From NCBI GenBank assembly GCA_043803385.1, contig JAZDKA010000041.1, forward strand, positions 19,799 through 83,798: 64,000 nt of DNA, given 5' to 3'. Position 1 is the stretch's first letter; each line of letters opens with the position of its first letter. The translations under genes were made by a program, and so were the position numbers. The notes under the pieces are model-generated. The model was not told the DNA's origin. It did not search any database and saw only the letters and a program-made list of their open reading frames with translations. The DNA comes from Patescibacteria group bacterium. GTDB taxonomy: Bacteria; Patescibacteriota; Minisyncoccia; Moranbacterales; JAKLHP01. Shown here in pieces: positions 7,210 through 31,113 of the stretch.

Positions 7210-7302
7210 CTACGAATTACGAATTTTATACAAATATACGAATGTACTAATATTTTTTAATTCGTATATTGGTATATTTGTACTTGATTAGTAATTCGTA
7301 GT
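7210..7302 (+). repeat. Family A MITE-like palindromic element (ctacgaattac...gtaattcgtag)
   Basis: Terminal inverted repeats ctacgaattac/gtaattcgtag with a nested inner palindrome tacaaatatacgaat/attcgtatatttgta. A near-identical reverse-complement copy is at 31114-31206. Confidence 0.8.
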
Positions 7303-7308
7303 CTATTT

Positions 7309-8121
7309 ATGTCTTTTAACTTTTTTCAAACAAAACTTTTCAAGGTGATTGCCGTATCTTCAATAGCATTTTTTTTCATAATTATAAATCCCTACAAGAT
7401 TTTTAATCCAGTTCGCTCGGTATTTTTAGTGATTTTTTCTCCAATTCAGAAAGTAGCTTATGGGCTGTCTTTTGAAATTAAACAAGTCAAAAATTTTCTT
7501 TCTTCCATAGGCCAGCTAAAAAACGAAAATGAAAAGCTTATAAAAGAAAACAGGGAACTTTTGTCTTTGAAAATAAGCCTTGAAGAAGCAGGAAGGGAAA
7601 ATGAAATTTTGCGCCGGGAACTAAAACTGCTTCCAATGGATAAATTTAATCTTGAAGGAGCTTCACTGGTAGGGAAAGATCCTCATGGAAAAGGCGATTG
7701 GATTGAGATTGACAAAGGGGGAAAGGATGGAATTGGCGAGGAAATGCCGGTTGTTGTCGGTTCAGGAATTTTAATAGGGAAAGTAAGCGAAGTTTTTCCG
7801 ACGACTTCGAAAATCGTCCTGCTTAGCAATCCAGGGAGCGCCATAAATGCCGTAGATTCGAAAACCGGTTCCAAGGGAGTAGTTCGAGGAGAATATGGCC
7901 TGGGAATAATAATGGATATGGTTCTCCAAAGCGAAGCCTTGAATCAAGGCGATGATGTGATTACTTCCGGAATAGGCAAGGAATTTCCCAGAGGACTCCT
8001 GATAGGAAAAGTGTCCGCGGTAAATCCTTCAGAAGATAGGCTTTTTCAAAAAGCGATAATTTCTTCTCCAGTGGATTTTAATAACTTGCAGTTCGTTTTT
8101 GTCGTTAAAAAAGGCATTTGA
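7309..8121 (+). CDS. mreC: Rod shape-determining protein MreC
   Basis: N-terminal TM segment, a coiled-coil region (ENEKLIKENRELLSLK), and a C-terminal beta domain. It sits between mreB and mreD. Confidence 0.75.
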   Translation: MSFNFFQTKLFKVIAVSSIAFFFIIINPYKIFNPVRSVFLVIFSPIQKVAYGLSFEIKQVKNFLSSIGQLKNENEKLIKENRELLSLKISLEEAGRENEILRRELKLLPMDKFNLEGASLVGKDPHGKGDWIEIDKGGKDGIGEEMPVVVGSGILIGKVSEVFPTTSKIVLLSNPGSAINAVDSKTGSKGVVRGEYGLGIIMDMVLQSEALNQGDDVITSGIGKEFPRGLLIGKVSAVNPSEDRLFQKAIISSPVDFNNLQFVFVVKKGI

Positions 8122-8130
8122 TAAAAAATA

Positions 8131-8682
8131 TTGCGGATGAGAAAAAAATTATTCATTTTTTTGGTTATCTTTTTAGCGGTTATTTTTCAAATAAGCGTTT
8201 TTCCGCTTTTCTTTTCAAGGAACAATATTCCCGATTTAGCACTGATTATCCTTGTTTCTTCTGTTGCCGTTCTCGGGTTTCAGCAGGTTTTGGTCTGGGC
8301 GGTAATTTCCGGATTTATTTTTGATATTTTTTCTTTTAGCAGGATAGGCGTGAACATTTTTTCTTTTGTACTGTTTTCTTACGCCATAAGTTTTTTTTCC
8401 CGAAGGATGATTTTGGGAGAAAAATCAGGGGGAATCCTTATGGGAGCCATCTTTGTTTCTTTCATGACTTTTTTCTACAGGCTATGGGCCATCTTTAATG
8501 AGTTAGGCCTTAATTTCCAAGAAATTTGGAAAATGAAAACAGAATTTTTGGAAGGAATGGGATGGAAAATTATTTTTAATCTCATCTTGTTTTTCCTTTC
8601 AATTTTATTTTTAAAAAGAATAAGGAACAAAATTTCTCCTAAAAATAATATTTACCCCTACACCAAAATTCCACCGTTATGA
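8131..8682 (+). CDS. mreD: Rod shape-determining protein MreD (polytopic membrane protein)
   Basis: A 183-aa multi-TM protein directly downstream of mreC. Its last ~10 codons are supplied by repeat family C. Confidence 0.6.
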   Translation: MRMRKKLFIFLVIFLAVIFQISVFPLFFSRNNIPDLALIILVSSVAVLGFQQVLVWAVISGFIFDIFSFSRIGVNIFSFVLFSYAISFFSRRMILGEKSGGILMGAIFVSFMTFFYRLWAIFNELGLNFQEIWKMKTEFLEGMGWKIIFNLILFFLSILFLKRIRNKISPKNNIYPYTKIPPL

Positions 8683-8757
8683 ATGCGTGGATGAATAAAT
8701 AGATGACACTGAATGTATTAATCCGATATCATGGCATAAGCCATTGGTGTGGGGTTA
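8652..8757 (+). repeat. Family C palindromic element copy C1 (acccctacacc ... ggtgtggggtt)
   Basis: Inverted repeats flank ~80 nt. The element spans the mreD 3' end and the mreD-mrdA spacer. Confidence 0.7.
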
Positions 8758-8771
8758 AACTGGCAAAATAA

Positions 8772-10658
8772 ATGTTCAAGAATAGCAAAACTAAAGCAAG
8801 GGCATCCAGAGGGATAGAGCTTGAAGACTATCTTTTTTCCGTTTCAAAAGAAGAATCGGCCAGGATTGAATTCCCGCTGGAAAAAAAGAAATTAGGAATA
8901 TTCTGGGCTATTATCGTAATATTCCTGGCAATTTTGGGAGGAAGAATTTTTTATCTTAATATTGTTAAAGGAAATTATTACAGGGAACTTGCTAATGGAA
9001 ACAGCATCAGGTCGGTTCCGATAAAAGCGCCCAGAGGGAAGATAATGGATCGCTTCGGGAATGTTCTGGTTAATAACGTTCCCAGCGTTGACGCGGTTGC
9101 CATACCTGCCGACCTCCCCAAAAATCCCGATGATATTAAAAAAATATCAGCTGATGTTTCAAAAATACTTTCGATCAGCGAGGAAGATTTTATTTCCAAA
9201 ATTACTTCAGCAGGCATGTCATCGCTTAATCCTATTCTGATAAAAGAAAATATTTCCCAGGATGAATATCTGTCTCTTGAGGAAAGAAGGCCGGATTTTC
9301 CCGGAGTAATGACTGAAAAAACAGCTATCCGCGAATATCCGGACAGCTCGATCTTTTCTCATATTCTCGGGTATGTCGGAAAAATAGACAAAAAAGAGCT
9401 GGAGGGAAGCGGCGGATATCTGCTTACCGATTATATCGGCAAGCAGGGAGTTGAAAAAACATACGAAAAATATCTGAAAGGAAAAAATGGCGCGGTCAAG
9501 GTCGAAGTTGATTCTATGGGAAAAATGAAACAAGAACGAGGAATTATTTCTCCTGAAGCCGGAAATGATTTAGTTTTGGGAATTGACTACGAACTCCAAA
9601 AAAAGATTTATGACGATTTGACCGACATGCTTTCAAAAACAAATACCAGGACTGCCGCAGCGGTGGCAATTGATCCAAAAAATGGAGAAGTGAGAGCGCT
9701 GATAAGCCTTCCGAGCTTTGACAATAATTTGTTTTCCGGAAAAATTTCTCAAGAGGATTATTCGAGATTGATTACTGATCCTGATAAGCCGTTGTTTAAC
9801 AGGGCTATTTCAGGCGAATATCCTCCCGGTTCGACTATTAAGCCATTGATCGCGTCGGCTGCTCTTTCGGAAGGAACGATTACTTCCGATACAACGGTAA
9901 ACGATAGCTCTGGCGCAATAAATATTGGAAGTTATCGTTTTGGGGATTGGAAAATCCACGGAGTGGTGAATATTAGAAAAGCCATAGCGGAAAGTTGCGA
10001 TGTGTTCTTTTATTCGGTAGGAGGAGGTTACGGAGATATAAAAGGTTTAGGAATGGATAGGATGGCGAAATATGAAAATATGTTTGGTTTGGGAAATATT
10101 ATAGGAATTGACATTCCGAGCGAGTCTAGCGGTTTTATCCCTAATACTGCCTGGAAATTGGATAAACTTGGAGAAAAATGGTATCTGGGAGATGATTATC
10201 ATGCGGCAATCGGCCAGGGTTTTTTAACAGCCACTCCGCTTCAAATAGTCAATTATATTGCGGCTATATCCAATGGAGGAACTTTATACCAGCCGAGAGT
10301 AGTATCTAAAATTGTTGATGAGGAAGGAAAAACTATCAATAATTCATCAGTTGCAATAAGAGATAAATTTATTTCTCCCGATATTTTGAAAATTGTGCAG
10401 GAAGGAATGAGAGAAGCAGTCGTTTCCGGATCAGCAAGGTCGCTAAACGATCTTCTAGTCCACGTGGCCGGAAAAACAGGAACATCCCAGTTTGGCAGTG
10501 AAAATAAAACCCATGCCTGGTTTGTTTCCTACGCGCCTTATGAAAATCCAGAACTCGCCATGATAATCCTGGTTGAAGGTGGGGGAGAGGGAAGCTCCAG
10601 CGCCGTTCCGGTGACAAGAGATGTTTACCAATGGTATTTTGGAGAAAGGAATAAATAA
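8772..10658 (+). CDS. mrdA: Penicillin-binding protein 2 (peptidoglycan D,D-transpeptidase)
   Basis: N-terminal TM segment, then SxxK (GSTIKP), SxN-like SCD and KTG (AGKTGT) motifs. Length 628 aa, following mreBCD. Confidence 0.85.
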   Translation: MFKNSKTKARASRGIELEDYLFSVSKEESARIEFPLEKKKLGIFWAIIVIFLAILGGRIFYLNIVKGNYYRELANGNSIRSVPIKAPRGKIMDRFGNVLVNNVPSVDAVAIPADLPKNPDDIKKISADVSKILSISEEDFISKITSAGMSSLNPILIKENISQDEYLSLEERRPDFPGVMTEKTAIREYPDSSIFSHILGYVGKIDKKELEGSGGYLLTDYIGKQGVEKTYEKYLKGKNGAVKVEVDSMGKMKQERGIISPEAGNDLVLGIDYELQKKIYDDLTDMLSKTNTRTAAAVAIDPKNGEVRALISLPSFDNNLFSGKISQEDYSRLITDPDKPLFNRAISGEYPPGSTIKPLIASAALSEGTITSDTTVNDSSGAINIGSYRFGDWKIHGVVNIRKAIAESCDVFFYSVGGGYGDIKGLGMDRMAKYENMFGLGNIIGIDIPSESSGFIPNTAWKLDKLGEKWYLGDDYHAAIGQGFLTATPLQIVNYIAAISNGGTLYQPRVVSKIVDEEGKTINNSSVAIRDKFISPDILKIVQEGMREAVVSGSARSLNDLLVHVAGKTGTSQFGSENKTHAWFVSYAPYENPELAMIILVEGGGEGSSSAVPVTRDVYQWYFGERNK

Positions 10659-10661
10659 TAA

Positions 10662-10688
10662 TTAGCAATCTTGACATCCGAGTGCTAA
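10662..10688 (+). promoter_or_regulatory. CIRCE (HrcA operator) inverted repeat upstream of groES
   Basis: TTAGCAATC-N9-GAGTGCTAA has one mismatch to the consensus TTAGCACTC-N9-GAGTGCTAA. Confidence 0.8.
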
Positions 10689-10699
10689 TAAGCTAAAAT
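10671..10699 (+). promoter_or_regulatory. Sigma70-type promoter for groES (-35 TTGACA, 17-nt spacer, -10 TAAAAT)
   Basis: TTGACA at 10671-10676 and TAAAAT at 10694-10699. The promoter overlaps CIRCE. Confidence 0.65.
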
Positions 10700-10731
10700 A
10701 AAAAAGCTAATAATTAATTTTTTAGTAGAAT

Positions 10732-11007
10732 ATGAAAAAATTAACAGTAAAACCACTAGGCGAAAACGTTTTGATTAAGCCGGAAAAATCCGATAAGAAA
10801 ACTGATTCCGGAATTTTTCTTCCCGAAAACGCTTCCGAAGAAAAACCCCAGCAAGGGAAAGTAATTGAAGTAGGGGATAGCAAAGAAATTAAAGTCAAAA
10901 AGAACCAAAAAGTCATTTTCAACCGCTACAGCGGAACAGAAGTAAAGATTGAAGGAGAAGAATATTTGATTGTGAAAAATGAAGATGTCCTGGCGGTGAT
11001 TGGTTAA
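10732..11007 (+). CDS. groES: Co-chaperonin GroES
   Basis: A 91-aa protein: MKKLTVKPLGENVLIKP...GKVIEVG...EYLIVKNEDVLAVI. Confidence 0.9.
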   Translation: MKKLTVKPLGENVLIKPEKSDKKTDSGIFLPENASEEKPQQGKVIEVGDSKEIKVKKNQKVIFNRYSGTEVKIEGEEYLIVKNEDVLAVIG

Positions 11008-11025
11008 AATTTTTAAGCGTTTTTA

Positions 11026-11068
11026 AAAGCCGAGCTTTAGGATTTTCCTAAAGCTCGGCTTGGTTTAT
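11026..11068 (+). terminator. Rho-independent terminator after groES
   Basis: 15-bp stem aagccgagctttagg/cctaaagctcggctt, followed by a T-rich tract. Confidence 0.75.
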
Positions 11069-11148
11069 AATTAAAAATAAAAAAACAGGGCAACACATTT
11101 ATGTGCGCCCCTTCGAACTTTCGAAATTTTGGTCAATCTCCTATTGAC

Positions 11149-11691
11149 CTACGTTCTCATTTTTTTGATGGTAATTATCGCTTTCTTGAGATTCTCCAGG
11201 TAGAGAGGGGTATTAATAGCTGCGAGAGCATCCATCGAAATATTCACGGCTACTATGCAAATAACGTTGAGAGCTTCACACTTTGCAGAGCTTTCGCTAC
11301 ACACTTTTAGTATCGAGCAGTTTTCGCATATATCATCGAAAACTGCATCGATGCCTTCCATACCCATCTTTTCCAGAGACGATGAGGTTGCTCGCCTTTT
11401 GTGTGTAGCTGGCTTTTCTTCCGGATTCTCGGCAGCTTCCTCAATCTGCTGATTAAGATTGTCAATGGCCTGTTGCACGGTTGATTTGAGATCGGGCATT
11501 TCAGCTTCGCGGTTGATCTTGCTTATCGCGTTGCTGAAAGTTTTAATGAGTCCGAGGATATCCTCGGGCGGAACTATTCCTCCTGCGGAATACACTTCTG
11601 CCCAATGGCTCAACTTAGACACCAGAGTTAAAGATTCCGAAAGTTCTTCCATACAAATCAAATGAACCGGTCTCCACTTTTTTTCGTCCAT
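11149..11691 (-). CDS. Hypothetical Cys-rich protein, foreign-looking
   Basis: A 180-aa ORF with AAAGGAGGATTCAAA-ATG SD and higher GC and codon bias than its neighbours. C-terminal CENCSILKVCSESSAKCEALNVIC cluster. Confidence 0.5.
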   Translation of the reverse strand: MDEKKWRPVHLICMEELSESLTLVSKLSHWAEVYSAGGIVPPEDILGLIKTFSNAISKINREAEMPDLKSTVQQAIDNLNQQIEEAAENPEEKPATHKRRATSSSLEKMGMEGIDAVFDDICENCSILKVCSESSAKCEALNVICIVAVNISMDALAAINTPLYLENLKKAIITIKKMRT

Positions 11692-11761
11692 TTTGAATCC
11701 TCCTTTTTGGCTTTATTGAACAACATAATAAGATAACACTCCTAGCGCTAGCTGTCAATAT

Positions 11762-12358
11762 TCAAATTTTAATTTCAGATATCGGGACATCAATTTGTTC
11801 CTGGATCTGTTTTTCTATATTTCTGCAGGCATCTAGCAATCTTTCAAAATTCGGACGGCTGGTATATTTTGGCATTCGTTTTCTGATATCATCAAATCTG
11901 TCATTTAATGTTCCCAATCCGGAAGGCAAAACTCTCAAATCAGAATAAAGAAGTATTTTCAAATACCAGTCATTACCGCCGGCAGTTTTAATTGAATTTC
12001 CAAAAGATTTTTTTAAAATTATATCAATTATTTTTTTGTCTATTTTTATTTCAGGAAGTATCTTTTTAGTTGCCTCGTGGTCATCTGATCCATATTTCTC
12101 TATCATTTTTTTCTGCACATTTTTCCAATAGCTGACATTATCTTTTTTGGTTCCCAATAAATCAGAGTATTTATCCAAATCGAATTTAACAATATTGCCA
12201 ATGTCATGAAGAAGAGCTGATTTCTGAATAATTTCCCAATCCAACCACGGTCCCTTCCAATGGATTTTGATAAAATTTGCAACTTCAGCCACTCTCTTCA
12301 TATGCTTCTGAAGATTGGGCGGGACTGAATATTTTTCGTATATTTTCTCAATGTTCAT
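11762..12358 (-). CDS. HD-domain phosphohydrolase family protein
   Basis: Has the H...LLHDIG metal-binding motif. Length 198 aa. Confidence 0.65.
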   Translation of the reverse strand: MNIEKIYEKYSVPPNLQKHMKRVAEVANFIKIHWKGPWLDWEIIQKSALLHDIGNIVKFDLDKYSDLLGTKKDNVSYWKNVQKKMIEKYGSDDHEATKKILPEIKIDKKIIDIILKKSFGNSIKTAGGNDWYLKILLYSDLRVLPSGLGTLNDRFDDIRKRMPKYTSRPNFERLLDACRNIEKQIQEQIDVPISEIKI

Positions 12359-12406
12359 ACTTTAAATATTTGTATATTTGTAATTAATTTGTAATTCGTA
12401 GAAGTT

Positions 12407-13204
12407 TTATTTTTTCACCGGAAATCCTTTTTCTTTCCATCCTGCGAAACCGCCCTGGAGGGATTGAGAAGCGAGGAAGCCGAGGTCGTAGAGGCGGACT
12501 CCGCCCTGAAATCCCTGGGTTTCCGTGTCTCCATAAACGAATATTTCTTTTCCGTAAGGTATTTTATCCTTGGATTTTTCAAGATCGTCGGCAAATATAT
12601 TTATGGCTCCGGGAATGTGGCCGTTATCAAAAGACTGTTTTCCTCTGATGTCAATTATAAATTTTTGGTAGTTGCTATTTTCAACAATTTCCTTGAGCTT
12701 TTCCGGCTCGATATAAGTGACTTTCGACTGATCGAAGAATGAACTCGGATTTCCGATGGATATCGTGTTTCCATTTGAATTTTTCCAAGCAGGAAATCCG
12801 CCAGTCAAGACAAGAACGCTCTTAGTTTGCTTGTTTTTTAAAAGTTTTATAATTCCTGAATATTCATCGCTTTCGCTGGAATTTCCGATGATAATTATCG
12901 TTTTTTCCGGATTTATTTCATTTGCCGATTCTTCCGAATTGATATTAAGGGAATCAACGATGTGTTCTATTTTAAATTCATCCTGGCTTCTGATGTCTAT
13001 GATTTGGATGTTTTCAGAATTCTTTATTTTGCTCTTTAAATCATCAGCTGATACTTGGGCATAGCTGATAACTTCCTTCGAGGCATTACTTTTTCCGGAA
13101 TCTTGCTTTTTAAATCCTGACCTGAAAAAGGTAAAAACAAAAACGAGGGCAATTAAGAGAAGGCCTATCAGCATCACTTTATTATTTTTTTTCTCGTCGT
13201 TCAT
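12407..13204 (-). CDS. Membrane-anchored tandem rhodanese-like domain protein (active-site Cys apparently absent)
   Basis: N-terminal TM segment and two rhodanese-like modules (IIDIRSQDEF..., IIDIRGKQSFDNGHIPGAINI). The loop positions carry S/D instead of Cys. Confidence 0.6.
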   Translation of the reverse strand: MNDEKKNNKVMLIGLLLIALVFVFTFFRSGFKKQDSGKSNASKEVISYAQVSADDLKSKIKNSENIQIIDIRSQDEFKIEHIVDSLNINSEESANEINPEKTIIIIGNSSESDEYSGIIKLLKNKQTKSVLVLTGGFPAWKNSNGNTISIGNPSSFFDQSKVTYIEPEKLKEIVENSNYQKFIIDIRGKQSFDNGHIPGAINIFADDLEKSKDKIPYGKEIFVYGDTETQGFQGGVRLYDLGFLASQSLQGGFAGWKEKGFPVKK

Positions 13205-14157
13205 TTTAATTTGCTTCCAATAAAGTTAGGATATCCATTGATAAAATCTTTTATCAAAACCAGTTTTTTGCCTTCAACTTGAACTTCTTCCATAATAATA
13301 GCTCCTTTGGATGCTTTCACACCAACGCTATCATTTATTTTTATGACTTCTCCGATTTGGCAGTTATTTTCAACATCTTTTTCCCATAGCTTTATTTTAG
13401 TAAGTTTTATTCTTATTATTATTTTTTCATTTCCCCAGACAGAAAAAATTCCCGGCCAAGAATAAAAAGCCCGATATTTATTATATATATCCTGCGCTTC
13501 TGAATCCCAAAAAATATGCCCGTCTTCTCTTTCGATAAGCTGGCAATAAGTGGCTTTTGAATTGTCTTGTTTTTGAGGCTTGATTTTTTTTTCTGTCCAG
13601 AGCGGAATAGTTTCTAAAAGCAGATAAGAACTAAGTTTTGCCAATTTTTCCGAAAGAGTTTCCGTAGTATCGTCCTCACTCATTTTTATGCTTTTTTGTG
13701 CGAGAATATCGCCATGGTCCATTTTTTCATCAACGAGCATTATCGTTGTTCCCGTTTCTTTTTCTCCGGCAAGTATCGCGTTTTGAATAGGCGATGGGCC
13801 ACGGAATTCTGGAAGAAGCGAGGGGTGGACATTTATGCTTTTGAATTTAGGATATTCAATAATTTCCTTCGGGATTATTTTTCCATACGCCGCAACAATT
13901 ATAAGATCCGGATGGGATCCTTTTATTTGAGAAATTACTTTCTCCGTTAATTTTTCCGGCTGAAGAAAAGGAATTTTTTGGGCTCTAGCTATTTCTTTTA
14001 TGGGGCTGGAAATTATCTTTCTTTCTCGTCCTGATTTTTTGTCAGGCTGGGTAACAACTCCCAAAATTTTATATTTATCCTCAATTAAAGAAGCCAGAAT
14101 TTCTTTGGCAAAATAGGAAGTGCCCATAAAGAGTATTTTTATATTTTCTTTTTCCAT
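13201..14157 (-). CDS. fmt: Methionyl-tRNA formyltransferase
   Basis: MGTSYFA... HPSLLPEFRGPSPIQNAIL. Length 318 aa; overlaps def as in the canonical def-fmt operon. Confidence 0.85.
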   Translation of the reverse strand: MEKENIKILFMGTSYFAKEILASLIEDKYKILGVVTQPDKKSGRERKIISSPIKEIARAQKIPFLQPEKLTEKVISQIKGSHPDLIIVAAYGKIIPKEIIEYPKFKSINVHPSLLPEFRGPSPIQNAILAGEKETGTTIMLVDEKMDHGDILAQKSIKMSEDDTTETLSEKLAKLSSYLLLETIPLWTEKKIKPQKQDNSKATYCQLIEREDGHIFWDSEAQDIYNKYRAFYSWPGIFSVWGNEKIIIRIKLTKIKLWEKDVENNCQIGEVIKINDSVGVKASKGAIIMEEVQVEGKKLVLIKDFINGYPNFIGSKLK

Positions 14158-14591
14158 TTTTTTGCTCTTTCAATGAATAAAATCCCGTCGAGATGATCGA
14201 TTTCATGCTGGATTATCCTAGCCAAAAGGCCATCGGTTTTCAATTTTGTCTCGACTCCTTTTTCATTCAAAAATCTCACTTTAACTTTTTTTGAACGTTT
14301 GATAAGCAAAAATTTTCCTGGAAAACTCAAGCAGCCTTCCTCGCCGATTTCTTTTTCTCGTGAATAGGAAGTGATTTTGGGGTTTATCAAAGCGAAAATT
14401 TCTCCGTCGTTTTGAATGACGCAGAGCCTTAATAATTTTCCAACTTGAGGCGCGGCCAGTCCGGCTCCGTCAGCTTCTTTTAAAATAGCCATCATATTTT
14501 TAGCAAGAGCTTGTATTTCCGGATCAAGAGCCTTTTTTATCTTTTTTGCCTTTTTCTCGAGTATTTTGTTGGGGTAAGTTAATATTTTCAT
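14139..14591 (-). CDS. def: Peptide deformylase
   Basis: Has GLAAPQVG, EGCLSFPG and HEIDHLDG motifs. Confidence 0.9.
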   Translation of the reverse strand: MKILTYPNKILEKKAKKIKKALDPEIQALAKNMMAILKEADGAGLAAPQVGKLLRLCVIQNDGEIFALINPKITSYSREKEIGEEGCLSFPGKFLLIKRSKKVKVRFLNEKGVETKLKTDGLLARIIQHEIDHLDGILFIERAKKWKKKI

Positions 14592-14745
14592 TTACCCTGT
14601 TAAATAAGATTTGAGTTTGTCTCAATGAATCTCTTATTTTTATAATTACTTAATTCAATTAATTTCTTTATTCACTCCCTGTGATTAGTTCAAATCTATT
14701 TTTTAAACTTATAGAAGTTTAAAAAATTTATTTAACAGGGTGAAT

Positions 14746-16776
14746 TTATATTAGACTTATCGGATCAACGTCGATTACCCAGTCGCTCGAAAGCATTTTT
14801 AAGTGGCGCTTTAGTTCTTGGGGGACATCATTTACCCCCACACCAATATTTTTATTATTGGCTAGAGGCATTAAATTATCGACATTGGTGTGGGGGTGTA
14901 TCTTTATTATAATCTGTTTTCGGAATTTGTCCCGTACTTTTGAAAGCTGGGGAGTAAACGGTTCAAAAATTGAAATATTTTTGTCTCTCTCGGATAATTT
15001 CCTGATTCTTTCAAAAACTGCTGCACTTTCCTTTTCTATTATTTTTTTATTGGCAGTCCGCAGGATCAATTTGATAATTTTGTAAAACGGCGGATATTTA
15101 AGTGTTTTTCTTTCCTCTATAATTTTTGCGTAAAAACCTTCCAGATCATTTTGAATTACATATTTAATTACGTAATTATCCGGATTATATGCCTGAATCA
15201 CAAGCTTTCCGTTGCTTGCTTTTCCTTTGATTTGCATTAACGCCTGAAAAGCTTTTTCATCTGAATTAAAATCGGAAAAATCCAGCAAATCGTCGGCATT
15301 TATAATACCAATTAAGCCAAGATAAGGCAATTCCCAGCCCTTAAGAACCGCTTGAGTTCCGATTAGGATATCGTGTTTTTTATCCCGGATATTTTCGAAT
15401 ATTTTTTGCTGGCCATCTTTGCTTTTCAGCGATTCGAAATCAACAAGCTTTGTTTTTGCTCCCGGAAAAATTTTCTTTATTTCCCGTTCAACTGTCTGAT
15501 TTCCGGTTCCAATATTTTTAAATTCCACCCCATTGCATTTTGGACAGTAGGGGAAAATATCCGTTTTGTATGAACAGTGGAAGCAGCGATAAATCCCGCT
15601 GCTATCATAGATTAAAGCTCTCTCGCATCGGGGACAGCGGAAAACTTCTTTGCAACTTGCGCAAATCGAAAAGGAGCTCATTCCCCGGCGATTAACGAAA
15701 AGAAATACTTGCTTGCCGTATTTAAGCGTAAATCCAATTTCCGATATTAACTTTTTACTAAATATGATATTATTATTTCTTTTTCTGCTATTATTATTCC
15801 ATCCCTCATTTCTCATGTCTACAATTTCTAAATCAAAATCCTTGATTCGTGATTTATGATTCATAATTCTTTCGTGCTTATAATACGAATCGACATTCGG
15901 TGCAATCGACCATAATACTAGCTTGCTATTATAAATTTTTGCCAATTCCTCAGCTACTTTAACCGCGCTATATCTCGGGTTCATATCCCATTGCTTGTAA
16001 GAAATATCCTGCTCCTCATCAACAATTATTAATCCCAAATTTTTAAATGGCGCGAAAACCGCCTGCCGGGTGCCGATGATAATTTTCGCTTCGCCGGATT
16101 TTATTTTAGTGTAATTTTCGTATAATTCGCTGCCCTTGAGCTGGCTATGGAAAAGAGCGATTGAATTCTCATCGAAATATTCTCTTAAAATTTCCAGAAC
16201 ATGATAGGCGAGTGGAATTTCTGGAACAAGTAGTAATGTTTGTTTTTTAGCTTTTAAATTTTTCTTTATTAACTCCAGACAAATTTGAACTCCTTCACTA
16301 CCGGCAATCAATAGATATTTTGTATCTTGTATTTCGTATTTAGTATTTTTTAATATCGCAGCTACTATTTTTTTCTGTTCTGCAGCTAATACTATTTTTT
16401 TAAATTTCTTGTTCCTTGTCTCTTGCTCCTTGTCTCTTGATTTTGTCTTTTTCACCACAAAAAACTTCAATACTATACCTAGCGGACATAAGTAATATTC
16501 CGACACAAATTTAGCCAGTTCCAACTGTTTTTCGGTCAAAAATTTTTCATCCAGGATTTTATTAATTTTTTTAAGCTTGATATGCCCGAACCGGAAAAAA
16601 TCATCCCGATTATTTATCACGATTCCGTTGATATTCCTTCGAAAGAGGGGAATGGAAACGAGCGAGCCAAAAGATACAGGGCTATCATTTAAATACGAAA
16701 AACTCTGCTGTCTGGTAAGCGGCAGGCGAGTGAGCGGGATAACGTCAATAATGGTGTTTTTTTCTTCTTTTTTCAT
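14746..16776 (-). CDS. priA: Primosomal protein N' (PriA helicase), Walker A apparently degenerate
   Basis: Has the DEEQ box, the 4-Cys zinc ribbons CASCKEVFRCPRCE...CFHCSYK...CPKCNG, and a C-terminal domain. The P-loop region reads IAGSEGVQ (no GKT). The C-terminus contains the in-frame family C insertion (HPHTNVDNLMPLANNKNIGVGV). Confidence 0.8.
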   Translation of the reverse strand: MKKEEKNTIIDVIPLTRLPLTRQQSFSYLNDSPVSFGSLVSIPLFRRNINGIVINNRDDFFRFGHIKLKKINKILDEKFLTEKQLELAKFVSEYYLCPLGIVLKFFVVKKTKSRDKEQETRNKKFKKIVLAAEQKKIVAAILKNTKYEIQDTKYLLIAGSEGVQICLELIKKNLKAKKQTLLLVPEIPLAYHVLEILREYFDENSIALFHSQLKGSELYENYTKIKSGEAKIIIGTRQAVFAPFKNLGLIIVDEEQDISYKQWDMNPRYSAVKVAEELAKIYNSKLVLWSIAPNVDSYYKHERIMNHKSRIKDFDLEIVDMRNEGWNNNSRKRNNNIIFSKKLISEIGFTLKYGKQVFLFVNRRGMSSFSICASCKEVFRCPRCERALIYDSSGIYRCFHCSYKTDIFPYCPKCNGVEFKNIGTGNQTVEREIKKIFPGAKTKLVDFESLKSKDGQQKIFENIRDKKHDILIGTQAVLKGWELPYLGLIGIINADDLLDFSDFNSDEKAFQALMQIKGKASNGKLVIQAYNPDNYVIKYVIQNDLEGFYAKIIEERKTLKYPPFYKIIKLILRTANKKIIEKESAAVFERIRKLSERDKNISIFEPFTPQLSKVRDKFRKQIIIKIHPHTNVDNLMPLANNKNIGVGVNDVPQELKRHLKMLSSDWVIDVDPISLI
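14833..14897 (-). repeat. Family C palindromic element copy C2, in-frame inside priA
   Basis: acccccacaccaat...attggtgtggggg. It is ~85% identical to the copy in ligT and is read in the same frame in both genes. Confidence 0.75.
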
Positions 16777-16849
16777 ATATTTATTCTAGCATTCGTTAGA
16801 ATAAAGGCAAAGTTTGAAAAATTGCTGTATTTAAGCTAGAATTAAATAT

Positions 16850-17458
16850 ATGCAAAGGAGAATTTTTATCGGCATTAGCTTGCCAGAGGATGTTAAAAAA
16901 AGGATAAATCAAAGGATTGAGAAATGGAAGGAGTTGCCAATCTGTCCCCACACCAATAGCGGGGATAATTTATCTTCAGCCAATAGTAAAAATATTGGTG
17001 TGGGGATAACATGGTCGCTTCCGGAGAATTTTCATATCACTTTGTCTTTCTTGGGTTTTGTGGGTGATGAAAGTCTGGCTGATATTTGTTTGGCTATTAA
17101 AAAAACTGCTCAAAATTTTGAGAGTTTTGATATTGATTTTGAAGGAATAAGATTGGGACCGGATCCGGAAGATCCAAGGATGGTCTGGCTTTTTGGCGGC
17201 GCCAGTAAGGAACTTCGAAAACTACAAACTGAAATTGAAAAATCTTTGGATATTTTTGTGAGTGAAAAAAAAGAATTTAAACCGCATGTGACACTGGGGA
17301 AAATAGACAGAGGGAAATGGAAAACTCTACCGGAAAAACCGAAAATAGAAGAGCGATATAAAGTTTCTATTCCGGTTGAAAGTGTGGATATTTTTGAAAG
17401 CAAGATTGAAAAAGGAAGAACAAGATACACGGTCTTGGAATCGTGCAAATTAAAATAA
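16850..17458 (+). CDS. ligT: 2H phosphoesterase (RNA 2',3'-cyclic phosphodiesterase LigT/ThpR-like)
   Basis: Two H-x-T/S-x motifs (FHITLSFLG and PHVTLGK). An inserted peptide CPHTNSGDNLSSANSKNIGVGI near the N-terminus is encoded by the family C element. Confidence 0.7.
   Translation: MQRRIFIGISLPEDVKKRINQRIEKWKELPICPHTNSGDNLSSANSKNIGVGITWSLPENFHITLSFLGFVGDESLADICLAIKKTAQNFESFDIDFEGIRLGPDPEDPRMVWLFGGASKELRKLQTEIEKSLDIFVSEKKEFKPHVTLGKIDRGKWKTLPEKPKIEERYKVSIPVESVDIFESKIEKGRTRYTVLESCKLK
16945..17007 (+). repeat. Family C palindromic element copy C3, in-frame inside ligT
   Basis: tccccacaccaatagc...aatattggtgtgggga. Confidence 0.75.
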
Positions 17459-17530
17459 CCAAATCGCAACAAAACTTAAATTATATGCTATAGCATTAAA
17501 TTTAAGTTTTGTTGCGGAGTTAATGAATAG

Positions 17531-18349
17531 ATGGATATCCTGGGAGTTAAAGTGGATAATTTGGATAGGGGAGAGATATTAGAAAAAATATCTCGTTTTT
17601 TGAGCGAAAATAATTTTAGGCAAATTGCGACAATTAATCAGGAAATTATCTTGAAGGCGCAAGAGGACGAGGAATTTAAAAATATATTAAATAGCTGTGA
17701 TTTAAATGTGGCTGATTCGATTGGAATAAAATTTGCATTTTGGTGGCTAGGAGGAAAATTAAAATGCCGGATGACTGGAATCGATTTGATGCAGGAAATT
17801 TTGAAAATAGCCGATGAAAGGAAATTAAAAGTATTTCTAGCAGCTAATAATAGGGGATTGAGCAGTTGGGAAGAGACAAAAGACGCAATTTTGAAAATTT
17901 ATCCAAGTCTGGAAATTAGTGGGGCGAATATGGATAAAAATAAAGTCGTTGGTCATCAGTTATTGGTCATTGGCGAGAATGATATAGTTTTCTGCAATTT
18001 CGGTGCGCCGTTTCAAGAAAAGTTCCTGAATAGCTTAAAATGTGATTTACCCCCACACCTTTTTAAAGAAAATAATAATATGGTTAAAAATAACTTAGAA
18101 AATAGTAATTTAAATGAAAATTATGGTTTGCATAATAAAAGGTGTGGGGGTAAAATAAAGCTAGCCGTCGGAGTAGGGGGTAGTTTTGATTATCTGACTG
18201 GTAAACTAAAAAGAGCACCAAAATGGATGCAATTTTTTGGCGTTGAATGGTTTTGGCGATTGCTATTGCAGCCGAAAAGAATTAAAAGGATTTTTAACGC
18301 GGTGATAATCTTTCCAATTAAATTAATTTTTTATAAAAAAACATTATGA
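17531..18349 (+). CDS. WecB/TagA/CpsF family glycosyltransferase
   Basis: MDILGVKVDNL..., ...GAPFQE..., ...VGVGGSFD...RAPKW...EW.WRLLLQPKR. A ~35-aa insertion between the QE and GVGG motifs is encoded by family C copy C4. Confidence 0.75.
   Translation: MDILGVKVDNLDRGEILEKISRFLSENNFRQIATINQEIILKAQEDEEFKNILNSCDLNVADSIGIKFAFWWLGGKLKCRMTGIDLMQEILKIADERKLKVFLAANNRGLSSWEETKDAILKIYPSLEISGANMDKNKVVGHQLLVIGENDIVFCNFGAPFQEKFLNSLKCDLPPHLFKENNNMVKNNLENSNLNENYGLHNKRCGGKIKLAVGVGGSFDYLTGKLKRAPKWMQFFGVEWFWRLLLQPKRIKRIFNAVIIFPIKLIFYKKTL
18047..18153 (+). repeat. Family C palindromic element copy C4, in-frame inside the WecB/TagA gene
   Basis: tacccccacacc ... ggtgtgggggta flanks ~80 nt. Confidence 0.7.
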
Positions 18350-18771
18350 CAACAAAATCAAAAATTATCCGGACAATTTATCTGTATGTGGCGGCGCTGG
18401 TGAGTCTGATTTTCGTCGCAGTTGGGACGGGAACAATTTTAAACACGGTTCTTAAAGCATATGTTTTTCCCAAAGCAGAGAAAGGAGGATTTAGCCGCTG
18501 TAATGGCCAGCCGCCAGTTTATGCCCTGGATAAAAACGCTTTGGCTGGAGCAGCAACAACTGATCAAAAGGTCCAGCTTGATAATTTGCTTCGGGATTAT
18601 GAACAGTGGAAAAAAGACAATACGGGAGAAGAATGTTATAGCCAGGAAAGGCAGAGTAATGTCGTGGACGCCATCACTATGATTATGATAGCCCTGCCGA
18701 TCTGCTTGTTTCATTGGAGATTAATCAAAAAAGATAAAGGAGAAAAAGAAGCGGAAAGTTCAGTCGTATAA
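18346..18771 (+). CDS. Hypothetical membrane protein (2 TM)
   Basis: A 141-aa protein with N- and C-terminal hydrophobic helices. ATGA overlap with the upstream gene. Confidence 0.45.
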   Translation: MTTKSKIIRTIYLYVAALVSLIFVAVGTGTILNTVLKAYVFPKAEKGGFSRCNGQPPVYALDKNALAGAATTDQKVQLDNLLRDYEQWKKDNTGEECYSQERQSNVVDAITMIMIALPICLFHWRLIKKDKGEKEAESSVV

Positions 18772-18783
18772 AAATTTACTGGA

Positions 18784-18801
18784 TTCCCGTTTTCACGGGA
18801 A
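18784..18801 (+). terminator. Putative terminator hairpin (ttcccg/cgggaa + T-run)
   Basis: ttcccgttttcacgggaa followed by tgacatatttatttt, just before gltX. Confidence 0.4.
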
Positions 18802-18816
18802 TGACATATTTATTTT

Positions 18817-20265
18817 ATGGAAAAAGTACGCGTCAGATTTGCGCCGTCGCCGACAGGGGAGCTTCATATTGGAGGGTTGAAAACAGCTCTTACTGATTTT
18901 TTGCTGGCCAAGAAAAATAACGGAACTTTTATTTTGCGCATTGAAGACACTGACAGGAAAAGATATGTCGAAGGCGCGGCAGAAAGAATAATAAAATCCT
19001 TAGAGTGGGCGGGAATCACAATCGACGAGGGTCCCTATATTCAATCAGAAAGGCTGGATATTTATAAAAAATATGTCGATCAGCTTATGGCGAAAGGAGA
19101 AGCTTATCTTTGTTTTTGCACGCCAGAGAGGCTAGAGGAAATGAGGAATCGGCAAATGGCTGAAAAAAAAGCGCCAATGTACGACCGATGCTGCCTTAAT
19201 CTTTCCAAAGAAGAAGCAGAAGAAAAAATTAAAAATGGAATTCCATATGCCGTGAGATTAAAAATTCCCGAAGGGAAAACTGAATTCGAGGATTTAGTTT
19301 TCGGGAAAATAACAGTTGAAAATTATGTTTTGGACGACCAGGTGATACTCAAATCTGACGGATTTCCCACTTATCATCTAGCGGTCGTGGTAGATGACGC
19401 GCTGATGGAAATAACGCATGTAGTCAGGGGCGCTGAATGGCTTCCCAGCACGCCAAAACATATTTTATTGTATAAAGCACTTGGATGGGATGACAAAATT
19501 CCGAAATTCTGCCATATGCCAAATATTCTCAATAAAAATCACAAGAAACTTTCCAAGCGGGAAGGGGATGTGAGCGTAGAAGATTTTAGGAAGCAAGGAT
19601 ATTCTCCGGAAGCGATTATTAATTTCATCGCGCTTCTAGGATGGAATCCAAAGACAGAACAAGAAATTTTTACCAAGGAAGAACTCATTGAGCAATTCGA
19701 TATTTCCAAAATGAACAAAGCCGGAGGAGTTTTCGATATGGATCGGCTCAATTGGATCAGCGCCCAGCATATCAAAAAAATGAGCGATAAGGAACTATAC
19801 AAAAAAACCATTGAATTTTTGAAAGAAAAAGAATTTTTCGAAAATGCGAAACCGGAAAGAAAAACGGAAGAATACGTAAAAAAAGTTTTATCCGTTGAAA
19901 AAGAGAGGCTTAGCAAATTTACCGAAGTAGGGGAGAGCAATTGGTTCTTTTTCAAAGATGATTTTGAAATCAAGAAAGATGATTTGAGATGGAAAAAAAT
20001 GTCCGATGAAGAACTTAAAAATTCCCTTGAAGCTTCCCTGTCGGTATTAAATGGAATAGGGGAGAGTGGATGGAAAAAAGAAAATATTGAAAAAGAATTA
20101 CTTGAAGCGGCGAGGGACAAAAGAGGGGATTTACTTTTCCCGCTCCGTTGGGTTTTGACCGGACAAAAATTTTCCCCGACACCATTTGAAGTAGCCTGGG
20201 TCTTAGGGAAGGAAGAGAGCGTAAGGAGAATAAATAATGCCCTAAAATTATTTAATGAAGAATAA
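18817..20265 (+). CDS. gltX: Glutamyl-tRNA synthetase
   Basis: HIGH-type motif PTGELHIGG and the KLSKR (KMSKS) motif. Length 482 aa. Confidence 0.9.
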   Translation: MEKVRVRFAPSPTGELHIGGLKTALTDFLLAKKNNGTFILRIEDTDRKRYVEGAAERIIKSLEWAGITIDEGPYIQSERLDIYKKYVDQLMAKGEAYLCFCTPERLEEMRNRQMAEKKAPMYDRCCLNLSKEEAEEKIKNGIPYAVRLKIPEGKTEFEDLVFGKITVENYVLDDQVILKSDGFPTYHLAVVVDDALMEITHVVRGAEWLPSTPKHILLYKALGWDDKIPKFCHMPNILNKNHKKLSKREGDVSVEDFRKQGYSPEAIINFIALLGWNPKTEQEIFTKEELIEQFDISKMNKAGGVFDMDRLNWISAQHIKKMSDKELYKKTIEFLKEKEFFENAKPERKTEEYVKKVLSVEKERLSKFTEVGESNWFFFKDDFEIKKDDLRWKKMSDEELKNSLEASLSVLNGIGESGWKKENIEKELLEAARDKRGDLLFPLRWVLTGQKFSPTPFEVAWVLGKEESVRRINNALKLFNEE

Positions 20266-21616
20266 AATAAAGACAAAAACAGCTGGAAATTTACCCCCAC
20301 TGGTTTATGTTTATAAAATAAAATATTTTTTTTCCAGAGTTTTTTCCTGCTGGAAATTTTGGTGTGGGGGTAAAAAAATAATCTTTCTCGGATTATCAAT
20401 TTTTATTTTGCTTGGATTTAGTTTTTTTCAAAAGACAAGTGCTGATGATACCGCCCAAAAAATAAAAGACCTTGAAGAAAAAGCCAAGATATACCAGCAA
20501 ATAATAGATATTAAACAGAAACAGCAGGATACTCTGGAAAATCAAACAGCCCTTCTGGAAGCTGAAGCCAGCAAGATCGAAAATGAAATAGAGCTCAAGA
20601 AAAGCGAGATTGACGAGCTGAATAGTAAGATTAATAGCCTGGAACAGCAAATAGAAGATACTGAAGTTTCTATCACGCTCCAAAAAAAGATTTTAGCTGA
20701 TCTTCTGCAGGCTTATTATGAAAACAAAGACCAGAATGTTGTGACTGCTTTTCTTAGCGACAAAAATCTTTCCGCGTTTATGTCCAAAGACGACCGATTT
20801 GTGCAGGTAGAAGACAAAACAAACGAGATCCTTAAAAATATAAAATCACTTAAGGAAGGATTGGAAAGTGAGAAAAAATCAGTCGAAGACAAGAAAAAGG
20901 AAATAACTGATTTGTTTTACCAGCTTCAGGAAAAAAGTTCTGAGCTTCAAGATAAAAAAGACCAAAAAGAAGCTTTGATAACGCAGACACAAGGAGAACA
21001 AAAAAAATATGAGGGACTTCTCGAAAGAGTAGAAGAGCAAAAACAGGAACTTTTGAATATTGATGAATTAGGAGGAAATTTGTCTGCTGATTCTTATCCT
21101 AAGCCTCCTTCATCAGCTTATGCTTCTGCTAGCTGGTATTATTCCCAGAGAGATTCACGTTGGGGAAATCAAACTATCGGAAACACAAAAACTTTAATGA
21201 AGAGTTATGGTTGCGCCGTTACGGCTGTTGCGATGGCTTTCACTTATCATGGCGATTCAATTACTCCCGGGTCAATGGCCAGGAAGAAAATATTCAGCTC
21301 GGATCTTATTGTTTGGCCAGCATCCTCATTTGGTAAAAAAGTTTCTTTGAGCGGAGGATATTCTCATGGAAACATAAATTGGAAAACTGTCGACAATGAG
21401 CTTAAAAATAAAAATCCTGTCATCGTTTACATTAAAAAAACTAAAGGAAGCGGAGGGCACTATGTCGTGATTCACACAAAAATGTCCAATGGAAAATATG
21501 TGGTCCATGATCCGTATTGGGGAGCAAATATTTATTTGGACACAACGCGTGCCCTAATGGGACAAATGGCTCCGCAAAGCGGCACTCAAATCGACCAGAT
21601 GATTATTTATAAGTAG
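20255..21616 (+). CDS. Secreted coiled-coil protein with C-terminal C39-like/CHAP-like cysteine peptidase domain (the true start probably lies after the family C element, near 20375)
   Basis: Signal peptide, a long coiled coil (EnvC-like), and a C-terminal WYYSQRDSRWG...GCAVTAVAMAF...GGHYVV (Cys/His papain-like fold). Confidence 0.6.
   Translation: MKNKIKTKTAGNLPPLVYVYKIKYFFSRVFSCWKFWCGGKKIIFLGLSIFILLGFSFFQKTSADDTAQKIKDLEEKAKIYQQIIDIKQKQQDTLENQTALLEAEASKIENEIELKKSEIDELNSKINSLEQQIEDTEVSITLQKKILADLLQAYYENKDQNVVTAFLSDKNLSAFMSKDDRFVQVEDKTNEILKNIKSLKEGLESEKKSVEDKKKEITDLFYQLQEKSSELQDKKDQKEALITQTQGEQKKYEGLLERVEEQKQELLNIDELGGNLSADSYPKPPSSAYASASWYYSQRDSRWGNQTIGNTKTLMKSYGCAVTAVAMAFTYHGDSITPGSMARKKIFSSDLIVWPASSFGKKVSLSGGYSHGNINWKTVDNELKNKNPVIVYIKKTKGSGGHYVVIHTKMSNGKYVVHDPYWGANIYLDTTRALMGQMAPQSGTQIDQMIIYK
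20290..20373 (+). repeat. Family C palindromic element copy C5 at the 5' end of the peptidase gene
   Basis: tacccccactgg...ggtgtgggggta. Confidence 0.6.
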
Positions 21617-24572: not shown

Positions 24573-24629
24573 ATTTTTAAAATTTTTAAAAACTTAAATT
24601 TTATGCCATAGCAATGAATTTAAGTTTTG

Positions 24630-25019
24630 TTATCTTGTTAAATCTTTTAATTTTATTGAATACAAAGTTTTCTTTATCTGTTCCTGAAGTTTTGTCCAGA
24701 CGATACTGGAGGCGCAAGAACATTTGGCGTCGCATTTTCCGCTGGCGCATTCCATCGGCACGATTGGTCCTTCAAGAATTTCGATAATTTCTCCAACTTT
24801 AATATTTTTCGGATTCTGGGAAAGCGTATATCCGCCCTCTCTCCCCTTCTGGCTGGATACCAGTTTATTTTTTTTCAAAGCTCTGAATAATTGTTCCAAA
24901 TACTTCAAGGATATCCCCTCTTCTTTGGAGATTTCCTGGAGACTTTTTTGATTGGGATAATTTTTCGCCAGATTAACTGTAGCGCGAAGCCCGTATCCAG
25001 CGCGGGTAGAAAAACGCAT
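24630..25019 (-). CDS. iscR: Rrf2 family transcriptional regulator (IscR-like)
   Basis: N-terminal wHTH (MRFSTRAGYGLRA...) and a C-terminal Cys cluster (CASGKCDAKCSC). It sits upstream of iscS-iscU. Confidence 0.75.
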   Translation of the reverse strand: MRFSTRAGYGLRATVNLAKNYPNQKSLQEISKEEGISLKYLEQLFRALKKNKLVSSQKGREGGYTLSQNPKNIKVGEIIEILEGPIVPMECASGKCDAKCSCASSIVWTKLQEQIKKTLYSIKLKDLTR

Positions 25020-25487: not shown

Positions 25488-25613
25488 TGCTGTCCCTCCT
25501 TATTTATTTTTCATTTCATACTGCGTTGGTAGATATTATCTGATAAATCGGAAATAGTCAAGCGGCGGCTTGATACTTCATACTTTCTACTTTATACTTA
25601 AAAGTAGATACTA

Positions 25614-25784
25614 TCCCAGCACCAATTCCGAGATAGTCTTTAATAAATTTGATAGTTTATTCTTGGAATCGCCTCGCCTGAGGCAGGCTTGGCTTTAGCT
25701 GGTTATGGTATGAAATTCACATTGCGAATTAGTGCGGGATGCTCAATTTTATAGCTACTCGCTCTGCTCGCAGACAAAATTGGC
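25614..25784 (-). repeat. Family B MITE-like element copy B1, abutting the start codon of the PD-(D/E)XK nuclease gene
   Basis: TIRs atcccagcaccaattcc / gaattagtgcgggatgc and the conserved core aggcgattcc. It ends ...cgcagacaaaattggc-ATG. Confidence 0.75.
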
Positions 25785-31105: not shown

Positions 31106-31113
31106 AAATACTG

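Follow-up and report, generated by a model that had tools for sequence, protein, structure and literature searches.

In-frame palindromic insertions in a Patescibacteria genome and their probable kinship with a small GIY-YIG nuclease-bearing element

Why do several unrelated genes on one bacterial contig each contain a short palindromic segment that is read in frame with the rest of the protein? The question is raised by a stretch of 64,000 nucleotides (nt) of contig JAZDKA010000041.1 (assembly GCA_043803385.1), hereafter the window, in which copies of a short element with inverted-repeat ends lie within priA, ligT, a wecG/tagA-family gene and a C39-like peptidase gene, and a further copy overlaps the end of mreD. 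The host is a metagenome-assembled genome (MAG) of the Patescibacteria group, with its PriA on record; a preliminary description of the window, made from its letters alone, had anticipated such a host by speaking of a context resembling the Candidate Phyla Radiation (CPR). We conclude, with a probability of roughly 0.7, that the copies in the window are non-coding relatives of a tiny nuclease-bearing mobile element, similar to MITEs (miniature transposable elements with inverted repeats), and that they are tolerated as loop insertions in the manner of Rickettsia palindromic elements (RPEs).

The copies in the window and their host genes

Each copy was taken to begin with the A of ACCCCCACACC and to end with the T of GGTGTGGGGGT, and all coordinates are those of the window. 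Copy 1 (8654-8756, 103 nt, strand not assigned) has one mismatch at each end (ACCCCTACACC...GGTGTGGGGTT) and is flanked by TTTA and TAAA. It overlaps the 3' end of mreD (open reading frame (ORF) 8131-8682), to which it gives the last ~10 codons (YPYTKIPPL) and the stop codon, and it ends 16 nt ahead of the PBP2 gene (8772-10658). Copy 2 (14834-14897, 64 nt, minus strand) has perfect 11-nt ends and lies within priA (14746-16776, minus strand). Copy 3 (16944-17007, 64 nt, plus strand) lies within ligT/thpR (16850-17458) and has two mismatches at one end and one at the other, its outermost base pair having changed from C..G to T..A. Copy 4 (18049-18151, 103 nt, plus strand), within the wecG/tagA-family gene (17531-18349), has perfect ends and is again flanked by TTTA and TAAA. 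Copy 5 (20293-20371, 79 nt, plus strand), with the same flanks, is located in the 5' part of the peptidase gene (20255-21616); its left end is partly decayed (ACCCCCACTGG, 8/11) and its right end is perfect. The 64 kb thus hold five copies of 64-103 nt, falling into size classes of 64, 64, 79, 103 and 103 nt, and none has an ORF of its own.

The terminal repeats of all five copies are 10-11 nt long and perfect or near-perfect, with 2-8 more pairing bases inside. Half-sites like ACCCCCACACC, with at most one mismatch, occur eight times in the window against 0.11 expected from shuffles, and inverted pairs with at most two mismatches per arm occur five times against 0.02 expected. The C/G-rich arms are conspicuous against a window G+C content of 37.7%. 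All five copies form long hairpins beyond those of shuffled controls, whether folded as RNA (z-scores of -3.2 to -6.2) or as DNA (-3.1 to -5.4). The preliminary description had listed five elements with inverted ends and had called them palindromic; all five were recovered, 1-3 nt away from the positions it gave, and their symmetry, folding and copy number proved to lie far beyond chance, in what turned out to be a large family. Its statement that the priA and ligT copies are ~85% identical fared less clearly. Copies 2 and 3 do have the same length and form one subfamily, the other interiors being mutually unrelated, but their ungapped identity is 77%, which leaves ~85% plausible and not directly confirmed.

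A chance origin of the motif was excluded by the shuffles, and a coding-driven origin was rejected since two different reading frames are used and the motif is also present outside genes. One half-site, at 20173, was set aside as conserved GltX coding sequence that the orthologue also has. Rfam 15 covariance models matched nothing at gathering thresholds in the whole window and gave sub-threshold noise in 8000-21000. A possible decayed sixth copy of 60 nt (2801-2860, ATCCCCACAAT...GGTGCGGGGAA) has three mismatches per arm, which is not above chance. The five copies are clustered in 11.6 kb (8654-20371) of the 64-kb window (P about 0.005 by simulation), which points either to hopping over short distances or to a region that tolerates insertion.

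In their hosts (priA, ligT, wecG/tagA and the C39-type peptidase gene), four of the five copies keep the frame and contain no stop codon in it, adding 66, 66, 105 and 81 nt, respectively. Pfam recognises the host proteins by PriA domains, LigT_PEase (2H phosphoesterase), Glyco_tran_WecG, Peptidase_C39_2 and MreD, which upholds the earlier assignments of the four genes with in-frame copies. In PriA the insert comprises residues 628-648 (PHTNVDNLMPLANNKNIGVGV); the 22-residue peptide quoted previously, HPHTNVDNLMPLANNKNIGVGV, also takes in H627. In LigT it comprises residues 32-53, with the peptide CPHTNSGDNLSSANSKNIGVGI, in the same register as the PriA copy, and for both proteins the peptides and the common register had been quoted exactly. 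The WecG insert is 35 codons long (residues 173-207) and lies between ...FQEKFLNSLKCD and KIKLAVGVGG, matching the ~35 amino acids (aa) previously placed between conserved blocks. In the C39 peptidase, 27 codons (residues 13-39) are inserted ahead of the N-terminal membrane anchor. Predicted translations of the inserts include stretches such as ...IKIHPHTNVDNLMPLANNK... and ...ELPICPHTNSGDNLSSANSK.... The arm is read as xAC CCC CAC ACC in priA, ligT and mreD and as TTA CCC CCA CAC C in wecG and the peptidase gene; the use of two registers indicates that conservation acts at the nucleotide level and not at the peptide level.

The expectation that the inserts would map to loops was borne out by the predicted structures of PriA and LigT, where the added 21-22 residues are placed in low-confidence loops of otherwise confident models. 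The AlphaFold2 model of PriA, built from a 27-sequence alignment, has a mean predicted local distance difference test score (pLDDT) of 76, and its insert lies in coil between a strand (617-626) and a helix (653-660), with pLDDT below 50 at 630-648. For LigT (53 sequences, mean pLDDT 85.8), the insert follows a helix (13-27) and stands ahead of strands, among them strand 53-55, that run up to the first HxTx motif; at 31-48 pLDDT falls below 50, and from residue 51 on it is 84-97 (10-residue block means). The Pfam match of WecG is split in two at the insert, the second stretch (residues 208-254) corresponding to profile positions 121-167.

Orthologues lack the inserted segments. Among 26 aligned PriA orthologues (48-70% identity), the ~20-22 residues of the insert fall in a gap in 23. 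Nearly all of 55 LigT homologues are 180-183 aa long, and a 202-aa protein with the insert is found only in the window and in homologue P0242, which is 80% identical to the window LigT. In a related genome (locus L122), ligT, wecG, gltX, the gene for the peptidase and priA follow one another as they do in the window. All four in-gene inserts are absent there, with high identity on either side: LigT has 180 aa (202 in the window), WecG 239 (272) and the C39 peptidase 429 (453), and the PriA loop is short. In a further locus that covers ligT and priA only (L120), both inserts are likewise absent. By these alignments the elements are shown to be insertions and not ancestral sequence, as had been proposed. 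The remaining three PriA orthologues (P0011, P0012 and P0017) have different, shorter inserts (e.g. NTKSI...DKTDGN) in the same loop, in the columns of window residues 627-650, and the loop may be a recurrent landing site or may hold remnants of older copies.

The comparison also orders the insertions in time. In the lineage of P0242 (L250-L252), PriA has 661 aa and WecG lacks the insert seen in the window, which indicates that the LigT copy is older and shared and that the others are specific to the window lineage. The state of preservation fits these ages, the arms being perfect in priA and wecG and the outermost pair altered in ligT. The ligT genes of the two lineages share 81% of their nucleotides, and the interior of the insert has diverged; yet the arm halves of this copy, CCCCACACCAAT and ATTGGTGTGGGG, are identical at 24/24 positions, third codon positions included.

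The wider family and its nuclease-bearing form

The family was defined by 10-bp terminal inverted repeats, CCCCCACACC...GGTGTGGGGG, and 4-bp flank repeats. Short forms were sought in one genome per species as exact 11-nt arms 59-118 nt apart. Exact ends are present in at least 119 genome stretches, mostly from Patescibacteria and from many classes (labels include Saccharibacteria, Paceibacterota, Moranbacteria, Doudnabacteria, Nealsonbacteria, Yonathbacteria, Woesebacteria and Berkelbacteria), with others labelled Phycisphaerae/Planctomycetaceae (Planctomycetota), Omnitrophota, Stahlbacteria, Nitrospinota, Bdellovibrionales and Proteobacteria. The sub-terminal variant TATTTGCA...TGCAAATA is found in three Phycisphaerae-type MAGs and AACTTTTG...CAAAAGTT in Omnitrophota. 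Short forms are 30-132 nt long and their interiors are otherwise unrelated. In 2.9 million viral contigs, one GC-rich, chance-like short match and no long-form match were found.

The left and right flanking 4-mers are identical in 43% of 263 non-redundant copies, compared with less than 2% by chance. Agreement at the four positions is 0.88, 0.60, 0.62 and 0.91, against 0.22-0.31 in the next four bases outward, and the inner two positions disagree far more often than the outer two even though the arms are perfect. Most flank repeats read TNNA because the search pattern fixed the left base as A and the right base as T; copies free of this constraint have the perfect repeats TTCG, CTTG, CAAA, CTCA and TAAT. 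An initial reading as a 2-bp duplication with a preferred T..A target was for this reason replaced by the 4-bp repeat. In the window, the flanks are TTTA/TAAA (three copies), TTTA/TGTA and TCTG/TAAC, with a perfect direct repeat in 0/5, and TTTA, read from the outside in, stands on at least one end of 4/5 copies. The empty orthologous sites read GA/TAAA/ATT (wecG) and AA/TAAG/AAA (peptidase gene) and the filled sites TTTA-element-TAAA, which indicates that the left 4-mer was not copied from the target. Such flanks would fit a 4-nt staggered excision that carries one old flank along, or microhomology joining.

We counted the net insertion as the arm-to-arm length plus 2 nt, which is a multiple of three for 66 of 126 copies. 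Open spans of 150 codons or more contain only 36 of the 126, as against 74% of random positions, and the frame is kept in 30 of the 36. When at least 40 open codons were required on each side, 20 copies (~16%) were in genes; the frame is kept in 18 of them and all 20 are stop-free in the host frame. Copies outside open spans are distributed 30/48/28 across the three length classes, with no comparable bias, and the number of open frames out of six is 2.75 for in-gene copies and 1.75 for intergenic copies. Most copies lie between genes, and the pattern is that of elements inserting widely and being purged from genes unless the frame stays open. The repeats themselves cannot encode a stop codon in any of the six frames, as T is missing from one arm and A from the other. 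Frame and stop statistics together suggest that the inserts are translated, as tolerated loop extensions.

Tandem elements sharing a single 4-mer (GGGGG-TTTA-CCCCC), clusters of three copies in 1.2 kb and duplicated arm fragments were also seen (L050 1542-1690; L009 5900-7114; L176 181-499), which points to insertion of elements next to or into one another.

A longer form with the same ends was found at locus L106, where a 288-nt element has perfect 20-bp arms, a perfect TAAA repeat and an interior made up of one 85-codon GIY-YIG ORF. Scanning metagenomes for the same arms 258-318 nt apart yielded at least 120 loci. Among the matches listed, 103 of 122 repeat pairs have GIY-YIG similarity between the arms, extending over at least 75 residues in 95, and most of the other pairs consist of two short copies side by side or are chance matches in GC-rich sequence. 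The long form is ~285-315 bp in length with a single ORF of 84-90 aa, which encodes a stand-alone GIY-YIG nuclease of the UPF0213 type (Pfam PF01541, E = 1e-15 to 1e-19, down to 1.5e-19). Among solved structures, those of the UPF0213 proteins BH0048 and EF2693 (PDB 1zg2 and 1ywl; E = 6e-8) come nearest, and no curated NCBIfam family scored above its cut-off for the nuclease. In an alignment of 40 proteins, mean column identity is 79% and Y3, Y5, Y16, G18, R26, H30 and E62 are invariant. The protein family comprises 1972 clusters at E below 1e-5; the best 120 of these are 73-88% identical to the query and lie mostly on very short contigs, under Patescibacteria and Omnitrophica names.

Two long copies, at L125 and L136, are 96% identical over 305 nt and have unrelated flanks, and more long copies at 91-97% identity were found in other loci, several with a common nonsense mutation. 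Near-identical copies at unrelated loci indicate that the unit bounded by the arms is what moves. In an Omnitrophica MAG (L245), a copy with 16-bp arms and a perfect TAAT repeat is located between pstA and pstB. Judged by its sequences and where they occur, the nuclease family behaves like a mobile gene. A GIY-YIG protein is listed among the genes transferred from Patescibacteria to other bacteria (PMC12455944), and in the searchable literature we found no description of the GIY-YIG unit or of its link to the short elements.

GIY-YIG genes of the same clade adjoin tRNA genes in three loci (L100 7708-7930, L248 4001-4252 and L132 9265-9570); in the last, an armed element abuts the 3' end of the tRNA. 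Such copies may have been domesticated or have decayed; alternatively, the elements may favour the vicinity of tRNA genes.

Long and short forms have several sub-terminal variants in common (ACACC-A(T/A)AACGAG, -AATTA, -TAAT, -TAT and -AAAT), and 14 short copies were found in 0.71 Mb around long copies. An origin of the short copies as deletion derivatives of the long form found no support in the copies of the window, whose interiors resemble none of the sampled long elements. Family-wide, there is only a small shift in interior similarity (11.35 versus 10.36 matches of 20), which was attributed mainly to the sub-terminal variants.

A possible mobility enzyme and the rival explanations

What moves these elements? 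We infer that it is the nuclease, given that its association with the ends is exclusive, that the unit is compact and its protein conserved, and that ~1.6 Mb of surrounding sequence offered no other candidate. In this model a full-length copy elsewhere in the genome would provide the GIY-YIG protein in trans, and the protein would recognise the conserved ends and break the DNA so that long and short forms alike are mobilised. The subsequent joining might proceed via 4-nt staggered ends, with one 4-nt flank able to travel along, a step in which we place low confidence. Taken further, the ~300-bp unit (4-bp flank repeat, CCCCCACACC, 84-aa GIY-YIG ORF, GGTGTGGGGG, 4-bp flank repeat) could be an autonomous transposon with a bare GIY-YIG domain as its only protein, representing a new enzymatic class and the smallest autonomous transposon known, whose non-coding derivatives across several phyla would remodel essential CPR proteins by in-frame loop insertion. 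We advance this larger proposal tentatively, at somewhat less than even odds. For scale, IS200 is roughly 700 bp long, and the ~300-bp unit is less than half of that.

Several observations weigh against these readings. We know of no GIY-YIG enzyme shown to act as a transposase, and GIY-YIG enzymes typically leave 2-nt 3' overhangs and not 4-nt staggers. The 64-kb window contains no GIY-YIG gene, and the interiors of short copies, in the window and in general, have no similarity to the sampled long elements beyond the ends. The short form is tied to the long form only by the 10-bp core, the sub-terminal variants, the flank pattern and co-occurrence, and long and short copies residing together often differ just inside the core (4.8 versus 3.7 matches of 8, n=11, a weak test). 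The flank repeats are imperfect in 57% of copies, and the TTTA/TAAA flanks of three window copies are inverted and not direct. Among members of the nuclease clade, that at L246 has diverged arms (TCCTAACACC...), and L248, beside a tRNA gene, and L100 have no recognisable arms. Translation of the inserts is deduced from frame and stop statistics. The taxonomy follows the labels of the MAG depositors, and binning errors could inflate the apparent breadth; groups outside the CPR have their own sub-terminal variants, which argues against simple mis-binning.

The leading alternative would make the elements MITEs of the usual kind, mobilised in trans by an IS1380/piggyBac-type DDE transposase that is unlinked to them, with the GIY-YIG gene as no more than a frequent passenger or as a homing gene that has invaded their interior. 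To our knowledge no GIY-YIG transposase has been described, and differing flank 4-mers beside perfect repeats would fit a piggyBac-like excision that carries flanking overhangs. Four-base-pair flank repeats together with termini beginning CCC are a hallmark of piggyBac-type elements, whose prokaryotic relatives are the IS1380 elements (PMC10813416), and our family also has the CCC...GGG termini and a preference for T/A-rich tetranucleotides (TTTA, TAAA, TATA and TTGA). In contrast to those elements, no DDE/DDD transposase was found between or near the ends here, the target is not only TTAA, and the autonomous candidate is ~300 bp long as opposed to at least 1.5 kb. We found no repeat pair of 0.6-4 kb with good ends in ~1.6 Mb around the 263 non-redundant copies, although the collection scans reach at most 600 nt and rare large copies are possible; a scan for transposase-sized copies that allowed three mismatches returned noise only. 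Moreover, nothing but the GIY-YIG ORF recurs as cargo, where it takes up exactly the whole interior, and its product is strongly conserved (the 79% mean column identity noted above, with intact catalytic residues), as if the element depends on it. We consider this alternative unlikely.

Known MITEs that form in-frame fusions, such as the Coxiella QMITE, intragenic ERIC and Anabaena MITEs, are likewise non-coding and multicopy, with inverted ends, presence/absence polymorphism and occasional in-frame gene insertion (PMC10969869, PMC5896051). Their flank duplications have a counterpart in the 43% of our copies with identical 4-mers, and in none of the five in the window. The known MITEs, however, go with transposases of the DDE or IS200/IS605 type and are each confined to a single species or genus, whereas the only coding partner found here is the GIY-YIG gene and the ends are conserved across phyla. 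As in REPIN-RAYT systems, non-coding hairpin repeats far outnumber a small protein gene thought to act in trans. In those systems, REP doublets are mobilised by a single-copy HUH transposase; here the protein is GIY-YIG and not HUH/Y1, the flank logo has no GTAG, and the protein gene sits between the repeats and is multicopy and mobile. The PF01541 domain, the small, selfish-looking gene and its spread across phyla recall GIY-YIG homing genes (I-TevI, Seg) and UPF0213/YhbQ. A homing endonuclease has a DNA-binding domain and is directed at a single cognate site, in contrast to the bare ~84-aa domain, the framing of the gene by inverted and 4-bp flank repeats, and the many unrelated genes and spacers with differing flanks that are occupied here. 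The family is set apart by its invariant 10-bp ends with free interiors, its 4-bp flank rule and a bare GIY-YIG domain in a ~300-bp unit.

A second alternative, which we regard as improbable, holds that the hairpins are structural or regulatory modules that benefit the host (in RNA processing, as terminators or as DNA-structure sites) and are under selection at each locus. It would account for 10-nt ends that are identical across phyla, for hairpin stability well beyond shuffles, and for the LigT copy, in which the arms are 24/24 identical between ligT genes that are 81% identical and the change from C..G to T..A is compensatory. Conserved ends are, however, equally expected if a protein recognises them for mobility. 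Unrelated insertion sites, presence/absence polymorphism, 4-bp flank repeats and near-identical copies elsewhere are signatures of transposition, the elements are depleted in genes, and there is no Rfam match. A third, that in-gene copies are cut from the mRNA or bypassed by the ribosome, intron-like or hop-like, and so remain untranslated, is very improbable: the strong stem-loop has its base at the insertion boundaries and an RNA-end-processing enzyme of the LigT/ThpR type is encoded nearby, but removal or bypass would lift the constraint on length and stop codons, yet the length added is divisible by three in 18/20 in-gene copies, none contains a stop codon in the host frame and they have more open frames than intergenic copies, no ribozyme or intron model matched, and the ~10 cases in which deleting an out-of-frame copy restored a long ORF were judged compatible with chance juxtaposition of genes.

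The reading of the window copies as MITE-like insertions tolerated in loops also bears on the likeness to RPEs that the preliminary description had drawn. In behaviour the likeness is upheld, the four in-gene copies being in frame, stop-free and absent from orthologues, and those of PriA and LigT lying in predicted loops. As far as the RPE-1 to RPE-10 families of Ogata et al. 2000 are covered by the summary in PMC10969869, the two have in common that short palindromes are scattered in a reduced genome, many of them in frame in unrelated housekeeping genes, and add a peptide at positions compatible with the fold, sparing conserved motifs. They differ, within the same summary, in host (Patescibacteria and other phyla here) and in size (30-132 nt here, ~100-150 for RPEs). 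Our elements further differ in their sharp 10-bp ends, identical across phyla around unrelated interiors, in the 4-bp flank repeats, in having ~16-29% of copies in genes and in sharing their ends with a protein-coding element. Given this host and anatomy, membership of an RPE family appears unlikely.

Other repeats in the window and the significance of the family

The window contains further repeats. A second family of ~110-135 nt, bounded by ATCCCGCACCAATTC...GAATTGGTGCGGGA(T), occurs at 25607-25741 (minus strand), 30527-30651, 36785-36909, 37866-37982 and 52848-52958. Every copy stands a short way upstream of where a gene begins, RfbA-like and RfbD-like genes among them, and runs on into a conserved ~45-nt leader with ATG at its end. 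The arm of this second family resembles CCCCCACACCAATT of the main family and the diverged arm of the GIY-YIG element at L246; the two families could be sisters, this one bearing a promoter or 5' untranslated region. AT-rich palindromic intergenic repeats with TACGAAT/TATACAAATA units are found at 7205-7326, 12366-12415, 31090-31211, 35901-35937, 43093-43129 and 62313-62361, among them a 122-nt inverted pair at 89% identity, and metagenomic GIY-YIG elements often lie inside similar AT-rich tandem motifs (e.g. TTGAAAATTG). A 43-nt AT-rich palindrome with a perfect stem (AAAACTTAAATT...AATTTAAGTTTT) is present at 17468-17513, just after ligT, and at 24589-24631, the two being ~90% identical; it may be a shared terminator or another small repeat family. 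Two intergenic segments of ~130 nt with two hairpins each (1725-1851 and 3575-3701) are duplicated at 91-98% identity 1850 nt apart, and a 42-nt coding repeat that encodes a C-terminal motif (1190-1231 and 1679-1720) is 86% identical. These duplications within 1190-3701 suggest paralogues arranged in tandem, with conserved structures downstream of them.

Discussion of selfish palindromes inserted in frame has centred mainly on Rickettsia, and the present family extends them to the CPR. The proteins that were hit serve replication restart (PriA), RNA repair (LigT) and the cell envelope, in a genome with very little slack. Since an older, shared insert in LigT can be set against younger, lineage-specific ones, relative dating is available, and the family offers a clean system for studying how proteins tolerate or exploit inserted loops. 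The repeats probably also break assemblies, most carrier contigs being very short, and inflate or split gene calls in MAGs.

The inverted-repeat GIY-YIG unit is mobile and its conservation extends across phyla; metagenomes from groundwater and sediment contain it in abundance. If its nuclease is the mobility enzyme, it would represent a new catalytic class for DNA transposition and would explain the many orphan genes annotated as 'GIY-YIG nuclease family protein' in CPR genomes. If so, it might also yield a very small sequence-specific DNA-cutting module.

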